NCBI GenBank assembly: GCA_038841535.1
Contig: JAWBTQ010000001.1
Location: forward strand, 1 to 64,000
Length of the DNA stretch: 64,000 nucleotides
Direction: 5' to 3'
DNA from: Sulfolobales archaeon
Lineage (GTDB): Archaea; Thermoproteota; Thermoprotei_A; Sulfolobales; NBVN01
In this document: in pieces, positions 46 to 60,885 of the stretch
Position numbering within the stretch: position 1 is the stretch's first letter
Layout of the letters: each line of letters opens with the position of its first letter
Notes under the pieces: generated by a model
The model's input: only the letters and a program-made list of their open reading frames with translations
Told to the model about the DNA's origin: nothing
Database searches by the model: none
Program-made: the position numbers and the translations under genes

Positions 46-313
46 GGGGTTCAGCTCTGATATAGGTTTGTATTTGTTGGTTTCGTTGCCTCATCTCTTT
101 TCCCCTGCATCAGTCTTGGGTCTGCACCACCCTTAGGGGCTTTCAGGGGCACCCCTAGACCCCCACATCTTGAGTATCTCGGGGAGAGCCCCTAGGGAGC
201 TCTCAACCCCTCATCGAACTATCCCCACACACTACTACACATAGAGTACTTAAGAGTTTCCATCCACATAAACAAATATGAAGAGATGTGAAACCCGAAA
301 CAGTTGCTTTAGG
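46..313 (-). mobile_element. Miniature IS607/tnpB-derived non-autonomous element (promoter + omegaRNA-like scaffold), copy 1, family A
   Basis: Reverse complement is nearly identical to 30124-30391. Left end GCCTAAAGCAACTGTTTCGGGTTTC, TATA-like GAAACTCTTAAGTA, right end GAGCTGAACCCC; no ORF. Confidence 0.8.
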
Positions 314-753
314 CACACCAATACGAGCGCTGTGCTGAGAGTAAAAGTGTGTGCTAGCAGGGAGTCAGCTAGTATACTCTTTAGCTGCGGAAGCTAGCCC
401 CTAGAAGGGTTAAGCTTGTATACTACTGAGAGAAGGTTAAGCTAGAACGATATGTCTTACTCTTACTTTACTCGTCTTTAGACCGTTTTCTTCTAGGTAT
501 CTAAGTAAAGCGCGTCTTATGATTTCCGATCTACTGAGACCCGAGTTCTTAGCTGCCGAGTCTAAAGCATTTAAGAGAGAATCATCAATCTTCAATGATA
601 TAACTTTCAGCTTGACTCACCAATATTCCCTGAGAACGGTAGCTTATAATCACGGGAAGTTTTTAGTTGATATGTACGAGTGCTTTGAGATTAGTACATA
701 TAGACAGATAATTTTATAAACCTCTATTAGTACTACTCTTGGAGGGTTCGTAC

Positions 754-1633: not shown

Positions 1634-2713
1634 GTGGATGTTGAGTCTAGGTTGAGGTTAGTACTTAGGGATACTGAAGAAGTTGTAACTGTAGATGAGC
1701 TTAAAGACCTGCTAGAGGCTGGTGGCGGTAAGGGGTACTTAGGCTTTGAGCCTAGTGGTTTGTTTCATGTAGGGTGGCTTATCTGGGCCTATAAGTTCAA
1801 AGAGCTCGTGGACGCAGGTTTTAGAATGGTTTTACTGGCTGCGACTTGGCATGCTTGGATAAACGACAAACTCGGAGGTGACCTAGACCTAATAAGAGCA
1901 GCGGCTAATCACGTAGTAGACATTCTTAATGCGATAGGCTTGGAGGGGCGGTTTGAGGTAGTGTATGCTGAAGACTTAGTTGATAGCAGAGAGTACTGGG
2001 CGATGTTGCTTAAGGTAGCTAAGTCTACTTCTATCGCTAGAGTTAGGAGGGCACTCACTATCATGGGTAGAAGAGCGGATGAAGCAGAGTCAGACTTCTC
2101 GAAGCTAGTATACCCACTCATGCAGGTTACAGACATATTCGAACTAGACGTAGACGTGGCCCTAGGTGGGATTGACCAGAGGAAGGCCCACATGCTAGCG
2201 AGAGATGTAGCAGAGAAGCTCAGTAGGAAAAAGGTGGTCGCAGTCCACACTCCACTTCTGCCATCACTTCAGGGGGTCTCTAAAATGGAAGTAAAGACCC
2301 TACCAAGGGACGAGATGATGTCAGAGATTAAGATGAGCAAGTCTAAGCCGGAGTCAGCGATATTCGTTATAGACTCAGACGAAGAAATCAAGGCGAAGAT
2401 AATGAGAGCGTATTGTCCTCCCAGAGAAGCTGAAGGAAACCCAGTGCTGGGGATAGCGAAGCACATAGTGTTTAGAGGTAGTGAAGTGGAGTTTCGAATT
2501 GAGAGACCGAGTAAGTATGGGGGGCCGGCTACGTACTGGAGGTATGAGGAGCTAGAAAGAGACTACGTCGATGGCAAGATCCATCCAGTGGACCTAAAGA
2601 GCTCTGTGGCTGAGTACTTAGCAAAGAAAGTCATAGGGCCGCTACGGAGCTACGCTATGAGACCGGATCGAGAGGAGTTACTCAGAAAAATAGGTGTCGC
2701 AGTTACGAGATAG
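1634..2713 (+). CDS. tyrS: Tyrosine--tRNA ligase
   Basis: GFEPSG..HVGW (HIGH-like), YPLMQVTD, GGIDQRKAHMLARD and KMSKS motifs. Confidence 0.97.
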   Translation: MDVESRLRLVLRDTEEVVTVDELKDLLEAGGGKGYLGFEPSGLFHVGWLIWAYKFKELVDAGFRMVLLAATWHAWINDKLGGDLDLIRAAANHVVDILNAIGLEGRFEVVYAEDLVDSREYWAMLLKVAKSTSIARVRRALTIMGRRADEAESDFSKLVYPLMQVTDIFELDVDVALGGIDQRKAHMLARDVAEKLSRKKVVAVHTPLLPSLQGVSKMEVKTLPRDEMMSEIKMSKSKPESAIFVIDSDEEIKAKIMRAYCPPREAEGNPVLGIAKHIVFRGSEVEFRIERPSKYGGPATYWRYEELERDYVDGKIHPVDLKSSVAEYLAKKVIGPLRSYAMRPDREELLRKIGVAVTR

Positions 2714-2714
2714 G

Positions 2715-3392
2715 TTAAGTCATGCTTAACAGGTAGACTTTAGTCTTCACTATTGGCTGAAGGTCTTCAGGAGTTACCACTAGCTCGTTGGTTTGCATGC
2801 TCACTACTTCATATACGTCCCTCACGATGTCTACGAATATATCTACTGGCTGAAGTGGTAGATTCATACCCTTAACCCAGTAGTGCATGGGTACAGTAAC
2901 CTTAGGCTCAACAATCTTCACTACTTCGAAAGCCTCTCTAGGGTCTATAGTGAATGTTCCACCTACTGGAACAAATAAGACGTCTACTGGCTTAAGCTCT
3001 AAGGCCGTGCCCTCGTCGAAAACGTGCCCTAAGTCACCTAAGTGAAGTACTCTTACTCCATCAACTTCGACTTTATAAACTACTACCTCACCCCGCCTCT
3101 TACCTTTGACCTTGTCGTGGTAGAGCTTGATGCCTCTAGCCTTATGCCGCCCACCCACCAAGAACTCACCCTCTCTCATGGAGTATTTTTCAGCAGCAGG
3201 CTTCGCCACTATATTATACGCGTTGTGGTCGAAGTGTTCGTGGGTTATGAGGACGGCATCGGCTTTGAAGCTGGGTGGCTTTATGCCAAGACTGTACCCG
3301 TCGTGCGGGTCGATAGCTATAGTAAACCCGTCGTGGTCTATAAGCTCAAAACATGCGTGGCCGTGCCACCTAATAATCAAGTTCTCCACCAA
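2715..3392 (-). CDS. MBL-fold metallo-hydrolase (UPF0173-like)
   Basis: WHGHACF, THEHFDH, HLGDLG and PMHY motifs. Confidence 0.9.
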   Translation of the reverse strand: MVENLIIRWHGHACFELIDHDGFTIAIDPHDGYSLGIKPPSFKADAVLITHEHFDHNAYNIVAKPAAEKYSMREGEFLVGGRHKARGIKLYHDKVKGKRRGEVVVYKVEVDGVRVLHLGDLGHVFDEGTALELKPVDVLFVPVGGTFTIDPREAFEVVKIVEPKVTVPMHYWVKGMNLPLQPVDIFVDIVRDVYEVVSMQTNELVVTPEDLQPIVKTKVYLLSMT

Positions 3393-3479
3393 GTACTTAT
3401 ACTATGGTAAAGTAATAAAGCTTCCTCATGAGGCTTTGCAGTAGCTTATTTACTGTATAGTAAACGTCTTGGGGGCATC

Positions 3480-4337
3480 ATGGTGCTCGGTGTTAACGTA
3501 GTCCAGGCTATCGGCAGGTCGACGTATATGTTGATAAGAGTTAAGGGTGTCCTTGTAAGCAAGAAGTCTAGATACCAACAGATCGATGTGGTTGATACGG
3601 AGGAGTTCGGGAGGGTTCTCGTATTAGATGGTCTCGTGCAGAGTGCCGAAGTCGATGAGTTCTACTACCACGAATCACTCGTACATCCAGCAATGATTCT
3701 CCACCCTAACCCTCAAAAGGTTTTAATACTCGGGGGTGGCGAGGGTGCCACCCTCCGCGAGGTTCTAAAGCACAACACTGTTGAGAGAGCAGTTATGGTG
3801 GATATAGATGAAGAAGTCGTTAAAGTATCGCGAGATTACCTTACTAGCTGGCATTCAGGTGCGTTCGACAATCCAAGATCTACTATAGTCATAGAGGACG
3901 GAAGAACCTTCGTCGAGGGATTGAAGGAAAGGTTCGACGTGATTGTAATGGATCTCACGGACCCCTACGGACCCGAGATAGCTCAAGCTCTATACCGAGA
4001 AGAGTTTATCGAGAGACTACATGAGGTTCTCACTGATGATGGAGTTCTATCGACGCAGGCGGGGACCTCCTTCTTCTACCCAGAAGAGTACGATGAATTA
4101 CACCGGACTCTATCAAAAGCTTTCAAGAAAGTTGCATCATTTTCTGTCTGGATACCGTCATTTGGTTACTCCTGTAACTTCATAGTAGCATCTAAGACTA
4201 AGGGACTTAGCGAGATCACTGAGGATGAAGTAGACAGAACGCTTAAGGTTAGGGGGGTCACTACGAAGTTCATTAGTGGGAAGGTTATTAGGGCGCTACT
4301 CGATCTTCCCAGGTACCGCAAGTACTACGTCGAGTAG
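3480..4337 (+). CDS. speE: Polyamine aminopropyltransferase (spermidine synthase family)
   Basis: LDGLVQ, YHESLVH, LGGGEGATLRE and DLTDP motifs. Confidence 0.93.
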   Translation: MVLGVNVVQAIGRSTYMLIRVKGVLVSKKSRYQQIDVVDTEEFGRVLVLDGLVQSAEVDEFYYHESLVHPAMILHPNPQKVLILGGGEGATLREVLKHNTVERAVMVDIDEEVVKVSRDYLTSWHSGAFDNPRSTIVIEDGRTFVEGLKERFDVIVMDLTDPYGPEIAQALYREEFIERLHEVLTDDGVLSTQAGTSFFYPEEYDELHRTLSKAFKKVASFSVWIPSFGYSCNFIVASKTKGLSEITEDEVDRTLKVRGVTTKFISGKVIRALLDLPRYRKYYVE

Positions 4338-4340
4338 AGC

Positions 4341-5018
4341 TTAAGGTACGATGCTCTTAATGAGCGACTCCAGCTCCTTCATGTTCGAAACATAAACAAG
4401 GTTAGTGCTGTTTAGCAACTTACTGCACTCGATTAGAGTACTACTTAAGGCTACCGGGTACCCGACTACTTCAAAAGCACTGCAATCCCACTCACTATCT
4501 CCCACGTACATAGTCTCAAGTAGACTAATACTATGCTTTCTAGTTATTTCCTTGATTACCTCACCCTTCTTGAGGGGATTAACTACCTCTATACCCTGGG
4601 GTAGCAGCCTGCCTTCTTCATCGCAAAGCAGTTTGTTTGCGTAAACCTCGTCTATACCTAAGTTGCTAGCTACTCTAGTAGCAAGGTACTCAATTCCAGC
4701 ACTTACTATAGCTGTTCTCACTCCCCTGATCTTAAGGTAGGCTACAACCTCTCGAGCACCTTCAGCGATCTCTACTTTCTCAAAGGCTTCAGCAACCTCT
4801 CGGCAAAGCACGGTACCGCGGGCTCTTATTATGCTCTCTAGATCTAGCTTCATCCAGTCTGAGTACGTTATTAAACCGCGCTCAAAGTCCTTTGAGTAGC
4901 TTGCTTTGTTGATTAGCTCGTATGTACCGAAGACCTTGTGTAAGTAACCCCACGAAGACCTCTCTAAGACTAGAACCCCATCTAGGTCGAAAACAGCTAG
5001 CTTCAGCTTTCCCGACAT
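4341..5018 (-). CDS. HAD-IB family phosphatase (phosphoserine phosphatase-like)
   Basis: FDLDGVL motif I, VSAG, K, YVGDSEWD motif IV. Confidence 0.85.
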   Translation of the reverse strand: MSGKLKLAVFDLDGVLVLERSSWGYLHKVFGTYELINKASYSKDFERGLITYSDWMKLDLESIIRARGTVLCREVAEAFEKVEIAEGAREVVAYLKIRGVRTAIVSAGIEYLATRVASNLGIDEVYANKLLCDEEGRLLPQGIEVVNPLKKGEVIKEITRKHSISLLETMYVGDSEWDCSAFEVVGYPVALSSTLIECSKLLNSTNLVYVSNMKELESLIKSIVP

Positions 5019-5323
5019 CGAGCCGCTACCTCCTCTATAATGCTTTTAAATAGAGACTCTATAGCTTCTCTACTGACTCCAGCTAAGACTAACCTGCTTA
5101 GCAAGCGGGAGACTAGGTCTGCTAACTCTAGTACATGTCTACCAGTAGCTTCGCGCTCTAGATGGTCTACGTACTCAGGAGGATACGCAAAGAAGTCTCC
5201 TGAAACCCTCAACCCGAGCACTCTACACTTAAAGTCAGCATTCAGTTCAACCGTAAAAACCTTTCCACCTTCTTCTTTAACTTCTTTCCTAACGAATAGG
5301 ACGCTCACCTCATGAACACCCAT
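5003..5323 (-). CDS. Lipoate-protein ligase C-terminal accessory subunit (LplB-like)
   Basis: GGK...VSGDFFAYP pattern; overlaps the ligase catalytic gene. Confidence 0.8.
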   Translation of the reverse strand: MGVHEVSVLFVRKEVKEEGGKVFTVELNADFKCRVLGLRVSGDFFAYPPEYVDHLEREATGRHVLELADLVSRLLSRLVLAGVSREAIESLFKSIIEEVAARCRES

Positions 5324-6060
5324 TCACGTGACCTATATTTCCACTCTAACTCGGACGCTAACCTCAATTCGATCTCGGTGTAGGCGCCCTCTTGAAGCTC
5401 TACTCCCAGGCCTCTCCTAAACCCCTCAATCAAGGCCTCGATAGCCTCCTTCTTCTCTATATTCCTCCCCAAGTATTCTGATAGGGTTGTTACTCTTGCT
5501 CTAACTGGTCCCCTCGATGAGAGCTTAACTCCCTGGACCTTGATGACCTCAGAAAGAGCGTCTAAGTCTGTAGCGTACATGAACGTACCGTGCTGTAGCA
5601 CGAAACCAAACCTCCTAATCTGGGCTTGACCCGAAAACTTCCTGCCGGCTATCACACCATCGTTCAGTGGTACGAACTCAGCTGGCGCTCCTAAAACCCT
5701 GGCAGCCTCAATAACACCTGAAGCCAGGTACTTAAAAGACTCTGCTATATCTTCGGGAACACTCTGCTCTGGCACAACTATTGAGTAAGTAATCTCACCT
5801 TTCGGATCGTGATATACTGCCCCACCTCCAGTAACCCGCCTAACAACATCTACTCCCTCCCTGCGAGTGAATTCTAGGTCAACCACTTCCTCGATCTTCT
5901 GGAAGTACCCTAGAGTAACAGTAGGTTTATTGAAGACGTAGAGCCGTACAGTAGGGACACCACCCATAGCTGCGGAAAAGAGAAGAGCCTCGTCCATAGC
6001 CATATGGTAATATCCACTACCTTCATCAACTATTAGTCTAAACCTCAAGCTCTGTCCCAA
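5305..6060 (-). CDS. lplA: Lipoate-protein ligase A, catalytic domain
   Basis: MAMDEAL, RRVTGGGAVYHD, ND...RKFSGQAQ and LQHGT motifs. Confidence 0.92.
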   Translation of the reverse strand: MGQSLRFRLIVDEGSGYYHMAMDEALLFSAAMGGVPTVRLYVFNKPTVTLGYFQKIEEVVDLEFTRREGVDVVRRVTGGGAVYHDPKGEITYSIVVPEQSVPEDIAESFKYLASGVIEAARVLGAPAEFVPLNDGVIAGRKFSGQAQIRRFGFVLQHGTFMYATDLDALSEVIKVQGVKLSSRGPVRARVTTLSEYLGRNIEKKEAIEALIEGFRRGLGVELQEGAYTEIELRLASELEWKYRSREWVFMR

Positions 6061-6143
6061 AGTAGACAGCTGGCATGAAATAAATGTTTTGAGTTACAGT
6101 AATTAGCTATCCCTTGGTAGTCCTACCAACTTCATCTACGCCA

Positions 6144-8039
6144 CTAGCGAAATTCGGTAACACCTAGGTGCTTTAATAGGAAAGCAACTACGTCCGCCAT
6201 CTCTTTAGCGAGTACTTTAGGAGAAGATCCCGCGTGGCCGGACGAAGTCTCTAGTCTGAGGCACACTTCATTCCCATAACTCAGCAACTTTGCGTAGAAC
6301 TTGAGCGCGTGCGCTGGGTGAACTCGGTCATCGTATATACCAGTGAAAACTATTGTTGGCGGGTACCTCACTCCCTTCTTTACGTTATGGTACGGGGAGT
6401 ACTTCTCTAGGTACTCTCTGTCGGTAGGGACATCTGGGTTCCCGTATTCAGTAGTCCATGCTGCGCCTATGTACAGCTTGTGGAACTTGAGCATATCTAG
6501 CACTGGGTAGCCTATGGCTGCCGCACTCAATAAGTCCGGCCTTATTGTGATTACAGCACCTATTAGTAGGCCGCCATTGCTTCTACCCAAGCCAGCGACG
6601 CTGTAACCCATAGACTTGAACTTCTCGGCTACAGCTATGTAGTCATAGAAGACGTTAGTCTTCTTGTCGCGCATTCCAGCTTTATGCCATTCCTCACCGT
6701 ACTCCGAGCCACCCCTGAGGTTAGCGACAACAACGTCCACTCCCAGTTCCAAAAGTAGAGGAATCCAAGAGCTAAACGTAGGTGTGAGAGCTATACCGAA
6801 ACCACCGTAGCCGTAAACTACAGCACTTTTACTGCCTTTAGGGCTTCTAATCCAGAAGTAGTGTACTCTAACACCGTCGTGAGACTCAGCAAAACCTTCA
6901 ACAACTTGAGCATATACTAGGTCTTCGTGTTCAGCGAACTTCGTGAACACCGGTCTATTTTCGTGCTCTGCGACCTCGAGGACCTGGTAGGGCTTAGTAA
7001 AGTACCTTATCTCTAAAAATCCACCGCTTCCGTAGGAATACATTCTTGCAACACTTGCCGGCTCCTCGAAAGATAGCTCATCAACTATTCGACCCCTCAG
7101 ATCGTACACCCTGACTCTCGAGGAAGCGTCTAGAAGATACGAAGCAACTATGTGCTCTCCTACGAGTATCGCGTCCTGTAGTGCGGTGTTCTGTTCGGGA
7201 ACTAGTTCGACTACGCTTCCTCCTTCATCAATACTCAAGATCCTACCGAAACCCCGAAGGTCGTAAGCAGCAATAAAGTACCGGCTACCCACGGAATCTA
7301 TAAACGACGACCTGAAGTCCCCCTCTAGCACATTAACCCACTTACTAGGGTCTTCTAGTGGACCCGCGTAAAGAGAGTTCTTTACCCAACCATAGCTAAT
7401 ACTGACTAGTGCCTTTCGTCTATCGGCTGACTCAGTTAGAGATATGAAGTAGTTGCGTGGCAAACCACTCCCGAAAACTAACTCGTCTCTTTCGCTCTCT
7501 CTAAGAAATACTCTCTCACACGGAGGCTCAACTCCGTCAGGACACTTCCCTTCTCTATATAGCATAGTGTAGTAAAACCTTCCGTCTCCAAGAAGCACTA
7601 CATCTGATATACTTCCCCTCACTTTCTCTACGATTGATAGGTCCAGGAGGTCTACAACGACGAGCTCTCCAACATCTGATCCCCTTTCAGTGTAGAAATA
7701 AGCAAAGAGCCTTCCACCACCGTCGACGTAGTAGTTGTGGATTACAGCGCTTTCTCCAAGGTCCTGGCTGTCTATTAGCTTGAGGACTTCACTACCTCTT
7801 TCTAGGTTTATTGAGTACGTTGCGTTTCTCTTCATATAGAAGACTCCGGCAGGGTTCTTTTTGACGTTATATAATACCGGTATAGTGTAGTAAGCGAGGG
7901 CTTTTCTATAGACGTAACTGCTTAGAGGCTCTAGGCTGCTAACGCACTTACTGCTTTCAGATAATGCCCAGTTCACTACCTTAGGGTCGTTGATGTTCTC
8001 GAATTCATCAAACGGATCTAGCGACACATAAGACCCCAT
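6144..8039 (-). CDS. Prolyl oligopeptidase (S9A)
   Basis: YGYGGF, ANLRGGSEYGEEWH; catalytic GRSNGG, DDRV and GH. Confidence 0.95.
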   Translation of the reverse strand: MGSYVSLDPFDEFENINDPKVVNWALSESSKCVSSLEPLSSYVYRKALAYYTIPVLYNVKKNPAGVFYMKRNATYSINLERGSEVLKLIDSQDLGESAVIHNYYVDGGGRLFAYFYTERGSDVGELVVVDLLDLSIVEKVRGSISDVVLLGDGRFYYTMLYREGKCPDGVEPPCERVFLRESERDELVFGSGLPRNYFISLTESADRRKALVSISYGWVKNSLYAGPLEDPSKWVNVLEGDFRSSFIDSVGSRYFIAAYDLRGFGRILSIDEGGSVVELVPEQNTALQDAILVGEHIVASYLLDASSRVRVYDLRGRIVDELSFEEPASVARMYSYGSGGFLEIRYFTKPYQVLEVAEHENRPVFTKFAEHEDLVYAQVVEGFAESHDGVRVHYFWIRSPKGSKSAVVYGYGGFGIALTPTFSSWIPLLLELGVDVVVANLRGGSEYGEEWHKAGMRDKKTNVFYDYIAVAEKFKSMGYSVAGLGRSNGGLLIGAVITIRPDLLSAAAIGYPVLDMLKFHKLYIGAAWTTEYGNPDVPTDREYLEKYSPYHNVKKGVRYPPTIVFTGIYDDRVHPAHALKFYAKLLSYGNEVCLRLETSSGHAGSSPKVLAKEMADVVAFLLKHLGVTEFR

Positions 8040-30123: not shown

Positions 30124-30391
30124 CCTAAAGCAACTGTTTCGGGTTTCACATCTCTTCATATTTGTTTATGTGGATGGAAACTCTTAAGTACTCTATGTGT
30201 AGTAGTGTGTGGGGATAGTTCGATGAGGGGTTGAGAGCTCCCTAGGGGCTCTCCCCGAGATACTCAAGATGTGGGGTGCCAGGGGTTTCCCCGAACGCCC
30301 CTAAGGGTGGTGCAGACCCAAGACTGATGCAGGGGAAAAGAGATGAGGCAATGAAACCAACAAATACAAACCTATATCAGAGCTGAACCCC
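30124..30391 (+). mobile_element. Miniature IS607/tnpB-derived element, copy 2, family A
   Basis: Inverted near-identical copy of 46-313, with the same ends, promoter and hairpins. Confidence 0.8.
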
Positions 30392-37177: not shown

Positions 37178-37488
37178 CCTCTCGCAACTGTTTGTGTTTC
37201 TTATCGGTTCATATCGGTTGGTGCTATTCCTCCTACGATTAATGCGTAAACCTCTTTTCCGCGGTCTAGCGGAAACGTTCATAAGTATCTCTACATAGGT
37301 TAGTGAGTGGAGACTCCCCGATGAGGGGTTGAGAGCTCCCTAGGGGCTCTCCCCGAGATACTCAAGATGCGGGGCGCCCGTGGTCGCCCTAAACCCCCTA
37401 AGCCCTATGAAGACCCGAGCGGAGTGCGGGGGAACCAGGATAATGCAATGAATTCAACCAATATAAACTAACATAAGAGCTGAACCCC
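37178..37488 (+). mobile_element. Miniature IS607/tnpB-derived element, copy 3, family A (longer left arm)
   Basis: GCCTCTCGCAACTGTTTG left end, GAAACGTTCATAAGTA promoter, the same GATGAGGGGTTGAGAGC hairpin, GAGCTGAACCCC right end. Confidence 0.78.
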
Positions 37489-37551: not shown

Positions 37552-38754
37552 TTAAACTACCTGCTTCAGTGTTGAGTCCACCTCATCAGAGAACTCTTCT
37601 TGGTACGTAATTATCGCTCTATCTCCAGGGTTTAAAGTCATTCCTCTCGCTAGTGGGTAGGCAATCCAGGCATCACCCGACCTAACTGCTAGCACACTCC
37701 CGCCGTACTTCCTTAAGTGCTGACCCAGCTCGGTTATGTTCAGCTGCTTTGTGATTGTGACAGTTCTAACCCTCTCCCCCAGGCTCTCGAATACATTGCT
37801 GAAGAGCTCTCTATAGTCCTTGGGGAACTCTTCTTGAAGGCTCGGTATGCTGCCTATGGTAGTACTGGCGTCAGCTATGTCCTCGAGTTCCTTTAAGAGA
37901 GTAGCTAACCCTATAAAGGTATCTGGGTCTATAGAGCCAGCAGTATTCTTTAGTAAGTCCATGGTCTCCATATGCTTCCAGTCTATGTATATCTCAAGAT
38001 CGTTTATCTCCTCCTTTAGCTCTGGAGTGTGCTCTACTAGTACGTAGTGAGCTAGGTCTAGCATCAGAACAGTACAGTCCTTAATGTTCACTAAGCTCTT
38101 AACTACGTCCTCTAGCTCTCTAACACCGATGATCTCCAACCTGTACTCTACACCGTAGTCGTTAAGTAGGTGTAGAACGTTCTCTTTAAATCCCCTTAAG
38201 TACATCAAGGAGCCTTTTTTAATCACCTCGGTTTGCTTAGGCATGAACCTGTACTCACCGCCTTCAATTACTGCTAGGACGTCCACTGGGTACTTATCCG
38301 TTAAGTCTAGTACTTTAAAGTCTTCCTTAGCCGGTAGCCTAGCAACGACTTCTCCGTCTGCGTAGTGTATAACCTGGTTGTAGCTAATCCCGGGAGACCT
38401 ACCGACTAAGAGTGTATAGACTATGTCTTTCACCGAGTCCGAGATCGTGTCTACCGAAGAACCGTAGTAAAACGAGAGTAAGCTAGCGTACCCTCCTTTC
38501 CTAGACTTCCCGAAAGCCATTGCGTTGTGCATCACGAAGTGACCTACGCTCTCGCTGACGAGTCTGTCGAGGTCGAGTATCTTCATAGCTAGTTCGTAGT
38601 CTCTCGCGAAGTAGGCATAGAAGGCTAGATCTATAGCTATGTTCGTCATCTTCCAGATACCTTCGAGTACGTTTCTAACCGTGTCAGGTCTGTACCTGAC
38701 GACAGGAGGACTCCGGTGGAATCTTCTGTGTACTTCGGGAGTGAGTCTGGACAA
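37552..38754 (-). CDS. PhoU/TrkA-C domain protein
   Basis: Two PhoU-like helical repeats (IDLAFYA, MLDLAHY, LEDIADA) alternating with TrkA-C-like segments. Confidence 0.78.
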   Translation of the reverse strand: MSRLTPEVHRRFHRSPPVVRYRPDTVRNVLEGIWKMTNIAIDLAFYAYFARDYELAMKILDLDRLVSESVGHFVMHNAMAFGKSRKGGYASLLSFYYGSSVDTISDSVKDIVYTLLVGRSPGISYNQVIHYADGEVVARLPAKEDFKVLDLTDKYPVDVLAVIEGGEYRFMPKQTEVIKKGSLMYLRGFKENVLHLLNDYGVEYRLEIIGVRELEDVVKSLVNIKDCTVLMLDLAHYVLVEHTPELKEEINDLEIYIDWKHMETMDLLKNTAGSIDPDTFIGLATLLKELEDIADASTTIGSIPSLQEEFPKDYRELFSNVFESLGERVRTVTITKQLNITELGQHLRKYGGSVLAVRSGDAWIAYPLARGMTLNPGDRAIITYQEEFSDEVDSTLKQVV

Positions 38755-38863
38755 TACACCATCCTCATTAATAACTAGTGTTACAGGTTTTAAACGTAGT
38801 GAGTGAGCTTATTTAACTATTCACTTACTCGATAGAAGGAGTAGGTGGAGGAAAATTGCCAGG

Positions 38864-40000
38864 TTGAGAGAATTCATAGTATCTCTGGTTACGCTGGCGC
38901 TCATCGAGGTTTTCGCCGGGCTATCACTAAAGTTCAATGTCGAGCTACTTGTCGCATACTCTGTCGTACTGATCCTAATACCGGGGCTCATGGACTTAAG
39001 GGGGGATGTTTACGGTGCTATAGGTTACCGCTTCACTAAAGGGCTTCACTTAGGCCTCACTCAACCGAAGTTACTGAATAGGTTCAACTTAATTAACGCT
39101 TCGACAGGCTACGTAAACTCGATTGTAGTGACGTTCCTCCTGTGCTTAATCGGTGTGGGGCTATCTCTAGTGAGTAAGTTGAGCATGCCGGACTTCCTAT
39201 CCCTAATCTTCATAGCCTCATTCTCAACTGTCTCAGTATTCGTTGTACTGACACCAGTTATACTGGCTGTAATCGCCTACATGTTTAAGCTCGGTCACGA
39301 CCCCTCACCCTTCGTGGCAACGGTTGTTACAGGTATCGGAGACGTTATGACTCCTGTAGTCTTGATAGGTGTTGCCTACATGCACGAGCTGTTCCCCTAC
39401 TTCCTCAAAGCTCTATTCGTACTGGCCTCCCTAGGTTTGACGGTAGCACTAACAGCATACATGGTTAGAGTCGGAGAGTTAAAGAACCTCATCGAGAACC
39501 TCGTTTCGTCGACACTAGCGTCTACTGGGAGTAGTCTCGGAGGCTTCTACCTAGCTCTGTCGGTGGGTTTCATCGCCGAGAACCCGGAGATTCTGGGAGT
39601 AATACCAGCCTTTAACGCAGTAATAGGGGCCGCAATGGGCTACCTCAGCAACTCCCTTAACGTAGACTTACACATAGGTACAGACAGATATAGGAATACT
39701 TACTACAGAAACTCTGTTGCGGGACTTATGGCGACACACGCATCAGTACTAACGGCGTTAGCTGCTGTCACTATCTTCTCCAAAAGCGCTCTATCGAGGG
39801 CTCTAACCATCGCCCTCGGTGTAGCTCTATCCTGCTTAATACTGTATTTGGTATCAACTCTAATAACGTACTTACTGACAGTGGTATCGTTCCACCACGG
39901 CTGGGACCCTGATAACTTAGTCTTTCCAGTAATGACTACGTTTGTAGACCTCATGGGGCCTGTAATACTCACTGTTATAGCCATCCACCTACTGCCCTGA
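38864..40000 (+). CDS. MgtE/SLC41-family divalent cation transporter
   Basis: IPGLMDLRGDV, GHDP..VTGIGD, GWDPDNLVFPVMTTFVD. Confidence 0.88.
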   Translation: MREFIVSLVTLALIEVFAGLSLKFNVELLVAYSVVLILIPGLMDLRGDVYGAIGYRFTKGLHLGLTQPKLLNRFNLINASTGYVNSIVVTFLLCLIGVGLSLVSKLSMPDFLSLIFIASFSTVSVFVVLTPVILAVIAYMFKLGHDPSPFVATVVTGIGDVMTPVVLIGVAYMHELFPYFLKALFVLASLGLTVALTAYMVRVGELKNLIENLVSSTLASTGSSLGGFYLALSVGFIAENPEILGVIPAFNAVIGAAMGYLSNSLNVDLHIGTDRYRNTYYRNSVAGLMATHASVLTALAAVTIFSKSALSRALTIALGVALSCLILYLVSTLITYLLTVVSFHHGWDPDNLVFPVMTTFVDLMGPVILTVIAIHLLP

Positions 40001-40253
40001 AGCTGAGGCAGGTTACTAAGATCACTTGATCTCTTCAACTAGAACTATAGAGAGTATGTACTTAAGGAGCTTCCTAGATCAAAGGACACTCGATCTATTA
40101 TGTGTATTCCTCTCTAAACCAACTATACAAAAAGTTGCTGAACGTGCTTTCCGCAATATCTTTCCACAATAATAGGTTAGTCGTTAAAGCAAAGGATGTA
40201 TGAGGTGCTATGTAATCTGTGGGCAGGGATTTAGTAGAGAAGAGAACTTGGGT

Positions 40254-40325
40254 TTACTCGAAGTTCGCCTTGAGAACTCTAATAACGTTTTCGTATGCTA
40301 CTTTTCTAAGGTCCCCTTCTGAGAA
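40254..40325 (-). pseudogene. C-terminal remnant of an amidohydrolase/membrane dipeptidase (M19-like) abutting the tnpB right end
   Basis: FSEGDLRKVAYENVIRVLKANFE* resembles the S-E-x-D/E-I-x-K-I-x-x-x-N-x-x-R-V terminal helix of M19-type amidohydrolases. Confidence 0.55.
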
Positions 40326-41421
40326 CCGTTTCCAGCCCCAAGTTTTTGTAGGTTTTTCTAGGACGGGTTGTGCCTCAGCCCTGCGGTTCACTGTGGCTAC
40401 TAGCCACTCTACGCGGGGGTCATGGGCACCGTTCGAGCCCAACGGCACGGGGCTCACATCCAGTTTTAGGGCTATGTTCCATGCTCCTATTACGTCTCTG
40501 TCGTGTGTGAATCCGCATTTGCCGCATTTTACGGGTCTGGGGCTCCAGCCTCTCCTCTGGGCATTGCCCGTCATTGGAGACAGGCTGGAGCCGTACAGGA
40601 CACTTCCTGGATGTGTTCCTCGGATCTACGAACTCTACTCTTACACCGTGTTCTACTGCTTTCTCTACTAACTGCTTCTGGATCCCTCTGATGACTGATT
40701 GTTTGAGTCTATGGGCATCTAGTGGTCTTAATCTTAATCCATTCTTCTCCAGTGCTCTATCCTGGAACCTCTTGGGAAGCTTCTCCAGAACAACAACAGC
40801 TCTTTCCTCCTTAGCTACCTTAACCAGGAAAGATGCAACCTTGCTCCTCAAGTCTCTTTTGGCATGCTCCTCTCGTAGCTTCCTCAAAGCTATCCTGAGA
40901 GACCTCGTGTTGTTTCCGTACCTCTCCTGGATAGCTCTTCTCCTGTAGGCATAGCCTAGAACTATTTTGCTGTGGTTGGTTACTATTGTTATTGCTTTGT
41001 TGCCGGGGAGTATGAAGAGAGTTACGTTGTTCTCGTTAATATCCACACCGATAACCTTGCTGTACTTCTCCCCTTGCTCAGCACTCCTGGAGAACACTAC
41101 GTAGAGCTTGAGCTTCCCATTCTCAAGCTTCCACCTACAAGAGCTTCTGAGAACCCACCCAGTGTTGTAGTACATGTAGAACTGCTTGTGGAGAAGCAAA
41201 GGTATGTTCACCCACCTCACGTGGGTTTCTACCGAGACTCCCTGGAGAGCAAGCTTCCACATCTGGTTATCGCAACCGACATTCCACTGCTTAACCTCCG
41301 GCTTGTCCGTGAAAGCAAGACCCTTCTTCAGCTTGAGGAAGGACTTCAGCCTAGCAGATGCATCACGTACTGCTTCGATTTCTGTTAACATAATAGCCCT
41401 GGTCCATGCCTTCCCAACCAA
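40326..41421 (-). pseudogene. tnpB: TnpB (RNA-guided RuvC nuclease), 5'-truncated and frameshifted, with 3' omegaRNA/right-end region
   Basis: RuvC motifs VIGVDINE, VVLEKL and HDRDVIGAWNI. Zinc finger broken (TGT CCT GTA C GGC; restoring 2 nt gives CPVCG). N-terminus appears truncated. Confidence 0.9.
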
Positions 41422-41749
41422 CTCTAGTTCGAGAGAAGCCTCTAGGAAAGGTTTGTGGAAGCGTTAGTGGGTGGTCGAGAGAGTAAATAGAGTTGAGAGG
41501 GTGTCTACAAAGCATAAATGAGTTGAAGTTTTCTACTCACTCAAACTCAAGCCTAGGTACTTCTTAAACAGCGTTTTAAGGATTCTGTATACTTCTTCGC
41601 ATCCCCGCCCAGCGTTCTGCGCTTCGAGAGCATGCCGCTTAGGCGAATAGTCTCGACCCTAGCTTCCTCGAAGAGCTGAAAAAGCTTGTACGTCAGAGAA
41701 GCCTCTCTAGACTCTGCTCTTTGAGGAGCTCTTTAGCAATTCCGGGCAG

Positions 41750-41991
41750 CCTTGAGTAGCTACTTCGGGTTTCATATCTTTTCGTATTGGTTGATGTGGA
41801 TTGAAACTCTTGTAAGTATCTCTATACGTAGTGATATGTGGAAGTAACTTGATGAAGAGTCGAGAGCCCCGTGCCGTTGGCTCGAAGAGTGCCACGACCT
41901 CCTCGTGAAGTGGCTGGTAGCCACCGTGAACCGCGGGCAAGAGGTACAACCCGTCCTAGAAAAACCTACAAAAACCTGGGGCGGGAAACGG
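41750..41991 (+). mobile_element. Chimeric miniature element, copy 5: family-A left end/promoter fused to the scaffold of the neighbouring tnpB
   Basis: GCCTTGAGTAGCTACTTCGGGTTTCATATC left end and GAAACTCTTGTAAGTA promoter; 41864-41991 aligns with the reverse complement of 40326-40455. Confidence 0.8.
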
Positions 41992-42150
41992 GGATTCCAT
42001 AGTACTCAAGGACCTAGGAGTAGTTAGATGTATTAAGGTGAGGTGTGGCAGTAGGACTCATATCGGGGGCAGCTAAGAGCGAAGATACTCTTCAACCCAG
42101 ATGAAGATAAACAGTATATCCCGTACTGTATGAGGTCTCCGAGGAGGCTT
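41990..42150 (+). pseudogene. Decayed internal fragment of a different archaeal TnpB-like gene
   Basis: GDSIVLKDLGVVRCIKVR / RAKILFNPDEDKQY / YEVSEEA across frames; resembles the wedge region of Thermoprotei TnpBs (recalled, not searched). Confidence 0.4.
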
Positions 42151-42249
42151 CTACGACAGATGTAGCTGGGAGAGATGGGCCGACGACACTTAGAGTGAGA
42201 TAAGCTGATGGAAACAGTCTTTGCTAAATCAAAAATATTTTTATATTTT

Positions 42250-43071
42250 TTATACTATTTCCAATAACTCATACGTCAATTCAGATGTCTTAGTTTCCAT
42301 CATGAAGTATACGCATAGTGTATACTCCTTATAATGAGACACCCATATATCTGCCTTAGTTATATTAGCAAAGTGTGGATTATTGGGGTTAGGTGTAAAC
42401 ACAAACTTATCGACGTTTAAGGTAGTGCTTCCGTATGATATTGAAGCTGATGATACATGAGTTAATGTACCTATTTCTGGAGGTGTATAAGGCCATAGTA
42501 TCATTGCAGCCAAGAATTGATGGGGGATGACGAAGAAGTTCATAAATAAGCCTACAGTCTCTGCTACGACGTATTCTGCCATATATGGAGGTATTTCTTT
42601 TCCATTGAACATTACCCTAGGCGTAATTCCAGTCTGTTTTGGAAGCCATATAATGACTGTTGTGTTACCGCTTTCTTCTTCAATTATAAATTCTATCCTC
42701 GTGTATTCCACTCCTCCTACTACTTCAACTCCCTTATTATGGTAATAGAAGATCTCTATCTTTAATTCATTGTCAACGCGGTCGTAATCCTTTAACCTCC
42801 ACTTCATATAACGTACTAAGTTTATGAATTCCTCAAAGGCCTCAATATACTTCTCTTCAGGTGGTGGTGTAGTTGTGTAGGGGGTATACGTAGTAGAAGT
42901 AAGTGGAGTAGTCATCGGTGTTGTTGCATGTGGAGAGGTAGGAGTTGTGTAGGGGGTATACGTAGTAGAAGTAGCTGGACCTCCAGGCTGTAAAGCTGAC
43001 ATTAAGCCATAGATTACAGCAACAGATACTATAGTTACTACAGCCACAACCAAAAATAAAGGTATTTTCAA
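42250..43071 (-). CDS. Membrane-anchored extracellular protein with Thr/Pro-rich linker (AT-rich, likely acquired)
   Basis: N-terminal TM helix, TSTTYTPYTT repeats, visibly AT-richer than its neighbours. Confidence 0.8.
   Translation of the reverse strand: MKIPLFLVVAVVTIVSVAVIYGLMSALQPGGPATSTTYTPYTTPTSPHATTPMTTPLTSTTYTPYTTTPPPEEKYIEAFEEFINLVRYMKWRLKDYDRVDNELKIEIFYYHNKGVEVVGGVEYTRIEFIIEEESGNTTVIIWLPKQTGITPRVMFNGKEIPPYMAEYVVAETVGLFMNFFVIPHQFLAAMILWPYTPPEIGTLTHVSSASISYGSTTLNVDKFVFTPNPNNPHFANITKADIWVSHYKEYTLCVYFMMETKTSELTYELLEIV
42871..42973. repeat. 31-bp direct repeat, period 72 bp, inside the CDS
   Basis: AGTTGTGTAGGGGGTATACGTAGTAGAAGTA at 42871 and 42943. Confidence 0.9.
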
Positions 43072-43654
43072 TATTACACCAAATATGATGTATAGTTGTT
43101 GTTTATAAATCTTTTAAGCTAAAAAACACTAAAAATGAGCATTTCATCATAAATAAATTACATGTACCACGTCAGGAACTATTTAAAGTGGACATTATAT
43201 CTTCTTCGTAGAACTTCTTTAGAAGCTCTCCCTATTCCTCATCAACACTACATCGCTATATTCCTGTAGTCAACGTTTTGCGGATAGGCTTGGTACGCTC
43301 CCACACTAAGCTCTCACTCCTGTTTCTCCAGAATGAACTCGCTTAAGGGCATCTTTTGCTACTTCAATATCTATTCGTCTCCTAACACTTCTCTAAAGGC
43401 TCCCTTAGTATTGAAAAGCTCTCATAATCGTCTCCGAGGGATCCCTAGAGATCCCTAGCTCTACCTAGCTTCTCTAGTAAGCAGAGGAGTAGCTTCTCCC
43501 TATTCTCCTACGAGACCTTCCACGGGTTTAGGCTCTCGAACTACACCGACCGTTATCATACCTATGAAGAGTTACTGCTCTACATAAAACATCTCATGGT
43601 TGCGAGGGAAACCGTGAAACGATGGCTTTATGAGTAATCAGCCCCCATGGGGTG

Positions 43655-43732
43655 TGGCGGGCCCGCCGGGATTTGAACCCGGGACCACCGGCTTAGAAGG
43701 CCGGCACCCTATCCTGGCTGGGCCACGGGCCC
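43655..43732 (-). tRNA. tRNA-Arg(TCT), CCA encoded, no intron
   Basis: GGGCCCG acceptor stem, CCGGC-CTTCTAA-GCCGG anticodon arm, GGTTCAAATCC T-arm, 3' GCCA. Confidence 0.97.
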
Positions 43733-59911: not shown

Positions 59912-60240
59912 CTAGCATAGCCTTATACTTGAAGAAAAATGCGTTAATCTCTTAAGAAATGGATAGACAAGTTTTAGCGCAAGCTTCTTCAATAAACACT
60001 GAGCTTTGTTGGCGATCAAACAGACTAAGGCATTCACTATGAACTACTCACGCTGTCTTGCGAGCTCTTTGAACCTATCTACGGAATGCGTGGAGAGTGA
60101 TATAGCTGGAAACAATTGGACTAGTCTCTCGAAATTATCGCAGCCTACCTCCATATCGTAGCCCTAGTGAATACAGATATGCCCGTAAAGCCACGAGAGT
60201 GGCAATAACCATACTCGCTAAAAAGGGTTCCCTTCCGCAG

Positions 60241-60529
60241 CCTTGTTTAACTGTTTCGGTTTTCATATCTGCTCATGTCTGTCGATATTGATCGAAACGT
60301 TTATAAGCACCTCATGGTGATATGCGTGGATGTACATAGATGAGGGGTCGAGAGCCACTCGATGATCTAGATGATGGCTCTCCCCGAGATACTCAAGATG
60401 TGGGGTGCTAGGGGTCACCCCGAACGCCCCCGAGCCCGATGAGAACCCGAGCGGAATGCGGGGGAAAGAGGACAAGGCAACGAAGTCAACCGATATAAAC
60501 CAAAATAAACCAAAACGAGAGCTGAACCC
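60241..60529 (+). mobile_element. Miniature IS607/tnpB-derived element, copy 4, family A (divergent)
   Basis: GCCTTGTTTAACTGTTTCGGTTTTC left end, GAAACGTTTATAAG promoter, GAGAGCCA/TGGCTCTC hairpin, GAGCTGAACCC right end. Confidence 0.78.
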
Positions 60530-60885
60530 AGTCGGTTCGGTTACCTAGAGGGTCTCCTGTTTACGTTCATGCTTACAGCCATTGCTGTAATGATCGCCGC
60601 CGCAATTGAATTGATGCTTGAGAATAGTAAAGATATAGTTGTTCAGGTAGAAAGAGGAAGCGGAGAGGAACGTTACCGCGATCGTTAATGGTTCTCCGGA
60701 TGCTCCAAATAAATTGCTCGAGACTTTAGATAAAGAGAACCTACTTGACTTAGTAGTGTAACTAGTGGGTTAGACTCCACTAGGAAATAGAGCTATCAGA
60801 ACGACTCTAAAAAGTGTGATTAGGTACTACACCACCCCCTACTCTCCACCGCTATGGTAACCGCCCGATGTTTCTACATATATAG

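Follow-up and report, generated by a model that had tools for sequence, protein, structure and literature searches.

A single fusion between gene-less guide-RNA transposons of two families in a hot-spring archaeon

Gene-less elements that carry an omegaRNA have been described (10.1101/2023.03.14.532601), as have stand-alone omegaRNAs that act in trans (PMC10691335). For IS607 transposons, transposition is reported to proceed by strand exchange at a GG common to both ends and to the target (PMC6188088), and a mini-element with mismatched core dinucleotides (LE GG, RE TT) was reported to undergo no excision (10.1101/2023.11.20.567912). Here we describe, in a 64,000-nucleotide stretch of DNA from a hot-spring archaeon of the Sulfolobales (the window), an element in which the left half of a gene-less guide-RNA transposon of one family, A, is fused to the right half of one of a second family, B. 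In the titles and abstract openings of 10 out of 36 papers retrieved for hybrid or chimeric TnpB elements, no two-family hybrid is described. The parts of the hybrid and its immediate surroundings are as follows.

41360 to 41745, no strand assigned: unique intergenic DNA, orthologous to congener G002 (79% over 41360–41869)
41746 to 41863, plus strand: family-A left module (A-left), 118 bases, 71–83% identical to the full-length A-left copies of the genome
41864 to 41872, plus strand: fusion junction, GAGCCCCGT, common to B right ends and present as GAGCCCGT in the orthologous A copy
41864 to 41991, plus strand: family-B right end with an omegaRNA scaffold of five helices, terminus GGGAAACGG, 80–86% identical to 7 other copies
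41992 to 42011, plus strand: guide-equivalent flank, the first 20 bases past the B right end, the guide position being set by the general omegaRNA rule given in PMC10691335
41993 to 43732, plus strand: flank F3, up to tRNA-Arg, found without the B end in genome G062 (85%) and in metagenome contig L056 (41993–43519, 87%)

The A-left module of the hybrid has a left end of the pattern GCCT..CT(A/G)(C/T)TTCGGGTTTCA and the 3' terminus GATGAAGAGTCGA, and is contiguous with the unique intergenic DNA. Within the window, 41764–41870 matches 299–196 on the minus strand (77.6%), 30138–30241 (77.6%) and 60237–60356 (71%), and at each of these places A-left is followed by the family-A right end (A-right), with the terminus GAGCTGAACCC. 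The original prediction saw the same 5' module in four other cassettes; three of these are complete, and the fourth is truncated at its 5' end and keeps part of the module.

46 to 314, minus strand: complete A cassette with the same A-left plus A-right build
30125 to 30391, plus strand: complete A cassette of A-left and A-right, its site being empty in G002 and G007
37271 to 37488: 5'-truncated A cassette, matching the cassette from about position 39
60237 to 60530, plus strand: complete A cassette from a different subfamily, which has a canonical TTTATAA box

From 41864 onward the hybrid instead matches the 3' end of the adjacent, opposite-strand tnpB, as had been predicted, with 86.2% identity over 130 columns between 41864–41991 and the reverse complement of 40326–40455 (E 5e-38 within the window). 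The similarity halts at GGAAACGG in both copies, and the proposal that this sequence is the right end of family B is borne out by what lies next to it: a gene is disrupted where the adjacent copy ends, and the flank of the hybrid matches an empty site. Chance is ruled out for both halves, with a left-module 40-mer expected 0.00 times in shuffled sequence and BLAST E-values of 1e-16 to 1e-38. The hybrid is thus a real, single fusion of an A-left half to a B-right half, both from gene-less guide-RNA transposons. At Rfam gathering thresholds the tRNA-Arg was the sole match in the window. An antisense open reading frame at 41707–41949 was rejected as spurious, its product not being conserved with that of the frame at the same place in G002 (E 2.7).

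An assembly chimera would be a natural worry in a 40-contig genome assembly rich in these repeats, and the original prediction had named it as one way in which it could fail; yet the position 41863/41864 is bridged with 0 differences, and with at least 112 letters on each side, by contigs of three DNA runs from three studies.

40930 to 41975: bridging contig, run X2, record 15, 0 differences
41651 to 41975: bridging contig, run X5, record 23, 0 differences
41264 to 41975: bridging contig, run X9, record 32, 0 differences

This genome may itself derive from X2 and X5; X9 comes from a different study and carries no such flag. A metagenome contig, L057, is 99.9% identical to the window over 6 kb, hybrid included, and the repeat copies are at most 86% alike and so would not collapse in assembly. 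With three independently built contigs across the junction, the probability that assembly created the hybrid is negligible.

Family B is an IS607-type transposon with a serine-recombinase tnpA, a tnpB and an omegaRNA. An intact copy on contig C18 consists of a left end with a TTTATAAAGG box, tnpA (2008–2682; PF00239 match, 92.2 bits), a tnpB whose start tnpA overlaps (open frame 2654–3925, 424 aa; PF07282 match, 65 bits) and the right end; as in IS607 transposons, tnpA stands by tnpB, and the omegaRNA overlaps the 3' end of tnpB and ends at the right end. The motifs DVN, VVLE and DRD are visible in the 424-aa TnpB, and we take them to be its RuvC triad. Elements start GG|GTTGGCAACTG and end ...GAAACGG, and in 12 of the 13 copies whose left-end flank was read the sequence before the element ends in ..GG, the exact cut not being placeable to the base. 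Two serine tnpA genes are present in the genome, one of them intact and the other decayed, and a search for a Y1 transposase returned no match in this assembly, which is 84% complete.

Four gene-less B cassettes are present (C1:128479-128741, C1:223146-223377, C2:51050-51304 and C26:1395-1631), each consisting of the B left end with its TATA box and the first tnpA bases, the last ~140 bases of tnpB and the right end. Such cassettes are plain products of internal deletion, with the tnpA promoter now directed at the guide-RNA scaffold. The same build of B-left plus right end recurs in eight of the nine B right ends whose upstream DNA was read (in congeners G002 and G007, and in G010); upstream of the ninth, L019, the DNA is unrelated. 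The cassette C1:128479-128741 lies directly 3' of the end of a tRNA gene, and for 30 bases of the right-end flank it agrees fully with a B cassette of G002 (L017, G002:C4:246100-246700), the left flanks being different; this points to a further locus that is rearranged or shared.

Family A is a second family, related to B. The left ends of both carry GCAACTGTTT, and the A TnpB on contig C19, encoded by a 423-aa open frame, has 30% identity with the B TnpB across 292 residues. A-right corresponds to the 3' end and right end of A-type tnpB genes, such as that on C19. The original prediction took the hybrid to be the direct link between the cassettes and TnpB; because A-right itself ends A-type tnpB genes, that link exists independently of the hybrid, which is not needed for it. 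The termini of A, GCC... and ...GAACCC, are given by the empty site of cassette 30125–30391 in G002 and G007, which reads ATATGC|TTCTCATCG in both. In an alignment of 21 full-length A-left copies and the G002 orthologue, a block GAAAC..TT(A/G)TAAG is conserved, with TTTATAA at this place in one subfamily. The first hairpin of A cassettes (GAGAGC..loop..GCTCTC; e.g., window 30235–30255 and 60350–60393) has a very variable loop and is absent from full-length A tnpB copies, in which homology to the cassettes begins after the hairpin; a possible origin of this hairpin is the deletion joint in the cassette founder. The genome holds ~26 complete A cassettes and 50 A-type right ends against the one open 423-aa A tnpB on C19, and its 4 B cassettes compare with one open 424-aa B tnpB and one intact serine tnpA, both on C18. 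On contig C6, a decayed B-like IS607 element (left end, broken tnpA, tnpB fragment; C6:10690-11718) is cut off exactly at an A-cassette left end (11445), and C6:10690-11446 is a second place where the two families abut.

The history of the locus can be followed in the congener G002, where the reverse complement of locus L022 (L022rc) aligns to the window on both sides of the adjacent B copy: window 38663–40331 to L022rc 1–1676 (89.6%) and window 41360–41869 to L022rc 2673–3185 (79%), with the A-left module of the hybrid orthologous to ~3050–3185. At this same locus in G002, A-left is followed by a native A-right (L022rc ~3186–3332, terminus GAGCCGAACCCC). A-left was therefore present before the species split, and then with A-right, so that the hybrid arose in place, by loss of A-right. 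The G002 locus also bears on whether the hybrid could be a deletion derivative of an autonomous element, from a native third family, whose ends are naturally A-like on the left and B-like on the right. Intermediate families are conceivable, the left ends of A and B being related through GCAACTGTTT; however, G002 has the same A-left with A-right at the same locus, the full-length B element has a B left end, and a match over both halves was found in 0 of 40 relatives, which together make such a parent highly improbable.

The other side of the join has a history of its own. In G062, a different genus of the same family, the DNA matches the window at 85% from 41993 through to the tRNA-Arg, and in both G062 and L056 unrelated DNA precedes the point equivalent to 41993; these are empty sites. 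The B half of the hybrid thus has its own insertion junction and represents a second B insertion, distinct from the adjacent one. Of the 51 family genomes searched, 49 showed nothing of F3 beyond repeat and tRNA matches. The F3 region (41993–43732), which is partly present in G016 as well as matching G062 and L056 at 85–87%, lies next to tRNA-Arg and may be a mobile or integrated element at this tRNA; an open reading frame within it, 42250–43071, belongs to no clear family. A stretch of ~200 bases, window 42045–42247, is skipped in some contigs (joint 42044>42248 in X2 and X5, 42070>42249 in X13) and is no repeat in this genome; it is possibly a small insertion/deletion polymorphism or another mini-element.

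The neighbouring B copy, on the opposite strand, is itself in decay.

40254 to 40331, minus strand: last codons of an M19 dipeptidase gene, the remainder of which is replaced by the B fragment
40326 to 40455, minus strand: right end of the adjacent B element with its omegaRNA scaffold, to which the right half of the hybrid is most closely related
40326 to 41376, minus strand: decayed B tnpB, ~75 codons missing at the 5' end and a frameshift near 40563–40575 relative to the intact C18 copy

This copy has neither a tnpA nor a left end. An intact M19 dipeptidase gene (PF01244, 267 bits) occupies the corresponding place in G002; the B tnpB fragment of the window entered this gene with a junction at 40326–40331, the G002 target reading AAAGGGTTCTC. 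After entry, the left end of the fragment, its tnpA and ~75 codons were lost along with the remaining host gene. The gene, an M19 membrane dipeptidase (intact in G002 at L022 5368-6402), is destroyed here: its last ~25 codons are left, fused in frame to the B tnpB end.

The motif TGGGGC is common to the B end of the hybrid and the adjacent B end and occurs in none of the other 29 aligned copies, which argues that the two are sisters. Two B ends of this kind, 1.4 kb apart and inverted, with the adjacent end the closest relative (86% against 81–83% for other copies) and TGGGGC in both, could also come about by template switching or gene conversion, the B half having been copied in inverted orientation from 40326–40455 during replication or repair. 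Such a copy would, however, run into the flank of the neighbour; instead, the similarity goes exactly as far as the right end, F3 in G062 and L056 is an unbroken empty site, and the two ends differ at 18 positions. We therefore hold copying from the neighbour to be very unlikely.

The join itself falls in a short stretch of letters common to both families. At this place A copies read GAGAGC(T/C)..., B copies GTGAGCCCCGTG and the hybrid GAGAGCCCCGTG; the longer join sequences are GAAGAGTCGAGAGCCCCGTGCC in the hybrid, GAAGAGTTAGAGCCCGTCGAG in the G002 orthologue and GATGTGAGCCCCGTGCC in the B consensus. As had been proposed, the junction thus lies in a short motif at the first hairpin of both scaffolds, which amounts to GAGC or GAGCC against typical A copies and to GAGCCC(C)GT against the orthologous A copy of the congener. 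Since the hybrid, the G002 orthologue and the B consensus read alike at the join, the crossover lies within the 6–9 common bases (GAGCCC..GT) that open the first scaffold hairpin in both families, and the hybrid looks "in register" because the end points of the deletion fall at equivalent places in both scaffolds.

Taken together, these data make it likely that the hybrid is a rearrangement scar, left by a deletion between two neighbouring, decaying elements. An old gene-less A cassette, with a promoter-like left end and an A-type guide-RNA right end, would have occupied the locus before the split from G002. Later, a family-B IS607-type element, a sister of the copy at 40326–41376, would have inserted to the right of the A cassette, next to 41992. 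A deletion would then have taken the A right half, the intervening DNA, the B left end, tnpA and most of tnpB, with end points in the 6–9 bases (GAGCCC..GT) opening the first hairpin of both scaffolds, the B element lying downstream in the same orientation. The product would be A-left and a complete 128-base B scaffold, with the flank of the B insertion standing as a fixed guide. The aligned loci establish both the join and the order of events; from this we infer deletion as the mechanism, as well as the number of steps. Local decay, in the form of the truncated and frameshifted adjacent tnpB and the destroyed M19 gene, speaks for a deletion scar, as does the second abutment of an A cassette and a decayed B-like element on C6. 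Several observations pull the other way. A complete scaffold begins exactly at the join, and the TATA-like box of A-left is intact, as would also be expected from selection for an expressed RNA, and the locus persists in a relative, a ~89% identical contig from an RNA library spanning the B end and 78 bases of F3. A metagenome scan with a 21-mer conserved in F3 returned two contigs, the same-strain hybrid (L057) and the empty form (L056), and an intermediate haplotype (A-left, A-right, ..., B element, F3) was not found in this one scan. L022rc 3333–5570, to the right of the G002 A cassette, has no counterpart in this genome (84% complete), and the deletion may therefore have comprised more than one event. 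Searches of this genome for a reciprocal product or an inversion, with L022rc 3186–8000 of G002 and the M19 interior as queries, gave paralogous and repeat matches only, and no B-left/A-right partner.

We next turn to the wider claim of the original prediction, that A-left is a reusable expression module that can load different TnpB scaffolds. The 1.56-Mb, 40-contig genome contains 29 A-left, 50 A-right, 5 B-left and 16 B-right matches, 8 of the last being strong. A-left is followed by A-right in 26 cases and by B-right in one, the hybrid, the other two A-left matches being 30-base orphans; the 8 strong B right ends are preceded by B-left (four), tnpB (two), unrelated DNA (one, C10:169-298) and A-left (one). 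With the 246-base hybrid as query, a match over both halves was found in 0 of 40 relatives (in G002, the best 19 of 73 candidates were scored), and native B sequence (..CTAGATGT or close to it) stands directly before GAGCC in all 31 other B right ends of the 32 aligned from 9 genomes. Four matches in G002 that reach 16 bases into the left half (query 103–246) were examined and set aside as native B cassettes, AGAGTC being common by chance. The hybrid is thus a single copy in this genome, the metagenome scan gave the same locus only, and other A-left/B-right chimeras, which the prediction proposed to count, were found neither here nor among the matches scored in the 40 relatives. These counts, the native A-right behind the same A-left in G002 and the promoter-bearing left end (tnpA TATA box) that B cassettes have of their own lend no support to a reusable module.

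A more modest version of the idea is a functional promoter swap, in which the fusion was kept since A-left drives a B-type omegaRNA with a fixed guide that is used in trans by the B TnpB, for example to cut alleles of the F3 site without the insertion. The structural data on the guide-RNA half bear directly on this. In 31 B sequences, a five-helix scaffold has 89.0% of its cells paired, compared with 35–42% with slid 3' partners, the structure being favoured in that it was drawn from the same sequences; in 14 pairs both sides change, and the covariation score is 0.226 against 0.05–0.09 with slid partners, a score reached in 0 of 500 shuffles. The hybrid keeps the complete scaffold and 30 of 35 consensus pairs, close to the mean of 31 in the other 30 copies (range 27–34, with 12 of the 30 at 30 or fewer). 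Of its 18 differences from the adjacent end, 10 are in paired columns, where the hybrid has 4 that break a pair, 2 that keep a wobble and 1 that restores a pair; the original prediction had asked whether substitutions between the two are compensatory, and there are 0 double compensatory changes among the 18. Three 1-base deletions also mark the hybrid scaffold, and helices 1 and 2 are missing from its minimum-energy fold. As a whole, these features show neither decay nor selection.

On the side of expression, a TATA-like box, CTTGTAAGTA, lies at 41809–41818 of the hybrid A-left, within the block conserved among 21 A-left copies, and a promoter there is plausible on these letters. A contig of metatranscriptome run X13 (229 letters, 25 differences and 2 gaps, ~89% identical) covers 41841–42069; a relative diverged by ~11% therefore carries the B end joined to F3. 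It should be noted that this contig has 23 letters to the left of 41863/41864 and was not counted as bridging, that strand and transcript start cannot be read from contigs, and that the library may hold DNA; the lack of X13 cover over 41384–41827 is likewise not evidence. The contig begins at 41841, ~26 bases past the centre of the TATA-like box, a contig start being no evidence of a transcript start. If A-left fires, the resulting B-type omegaRNA could be loaded in trans by the intact B TnpB on C18.

A complete scaffold with 30 of 35 pairs, the conserved box, the intact 424-aa B TnpB, the RNA-library contig over 41841–42069 and the reports of stand-alone omegaRNAs working in trans (PMC10691335) are what one would expect of a promoter swap. 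The fusion is, however, a single copy from a single event, its scaffold has three 1-base deletions, pair-breaking changes and a minimum-energy fold short of two helices, double compensatory changes relative to the sister copy number 0, B cassettes own a promoter already, the 20-base guide after the right end has no second match in the genome at up to 4 mismatches, and an RNA library can contain DNA while its contigs cannot show a transcript start. On balance, we regard a fusion kept for its promoter as rather unlikely, and a deletion scar as the better account. The most specific form of the idea, that A-left is a portable archaeal promoter for a B-type omegaRNA that can no longer move, and that the frozen guide of this RNA (the initial ~20 bases of F3) would direct the sole intact B TnpB to incoming or sister alleles without the insertion and let it cut them, strikes us as improbable on the sequences at hand. 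If true, the hybrid would be a guide RNA in a first step of domestication, made by recombination between two transposon families.

The original prediction also held that the left and right cores are mismatched and excision by a serine recombinase unlikely, and this is supported. The A and B termini differ, and mismatched cores were reported to abolish IS607-type excision (10.1101/2023.11.20.567912). Because the left terminus is of type A and the right terminus of type B, the hybrid is predicted to be immobile and is probably not excisable by the serine recombinase.

The hybrid is most likely an ordinary rearrangement scar; it is a single specimen and no new system. Its value is that of a clean, datable example, with the "before" locus preserved in a congener and the empty site in another genus, of gene-less guide-RNA elements of two families recombining at homologous scaffold starts and thereby freezing a guide RNA. 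It also corrects the idea of an "expression cassette", in that gene-less copies of each family reuse the promoter-bearing left end of their own parent. With ~26 A and 4 B cassettes for one intact TnpB per type, the genome is a good one in which to test trans-loading of stand-alone guide RNAs in archaea.

Among known systems, stand-alone omegaRNAs and PATE-like derivatives (10.1101/2023.03.14.532601; PMC10691335) are closest to the hybrid, sharing with it transposon ends, a guide-RNA scaffold, the absence of a protein gene and a TnpB encoded elsewhere. As these sources present them, PATE-like elements have ends of one family and several mobilised copies, whereas the hybrid has ends of two families (A-type left, B-type right) and sits in place as a single copy, with 0 of 40 relatives and one metagenome locus adding no unrelated site. 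The PATEs described belong to IS200/IS605 elements with a Y1 transposase; the parents of the hybrid, in contrast, are IS607-type, and no Y1 gene was found in this 84%-complete assembly. With IS607 transposons as reported (PMC6188088; 10.1101/2023.11.20.567912), family B shares a serine-recombinase tnpA by tnpB and an omegaRNA scaffold ending ..CGG; asymmetric termini with GG at both ends and insertion with no visible duplication would be in keeping as well, to the extent that the cut can be placed; the hybrid departs from them in having a B right end only, its left terminus being A-type (GCC..). Finally, the hybrid resembles TldR-type domesticated TnpB systems, as described in 10.1101/2023.11.30.569447, in that a guide RNA is frozen at one chromosomal place, but it differs from them in that neither a dedicated nor an inactivated TnpB belongs to it, its target is not conserved, and it is itself not conserved across species.
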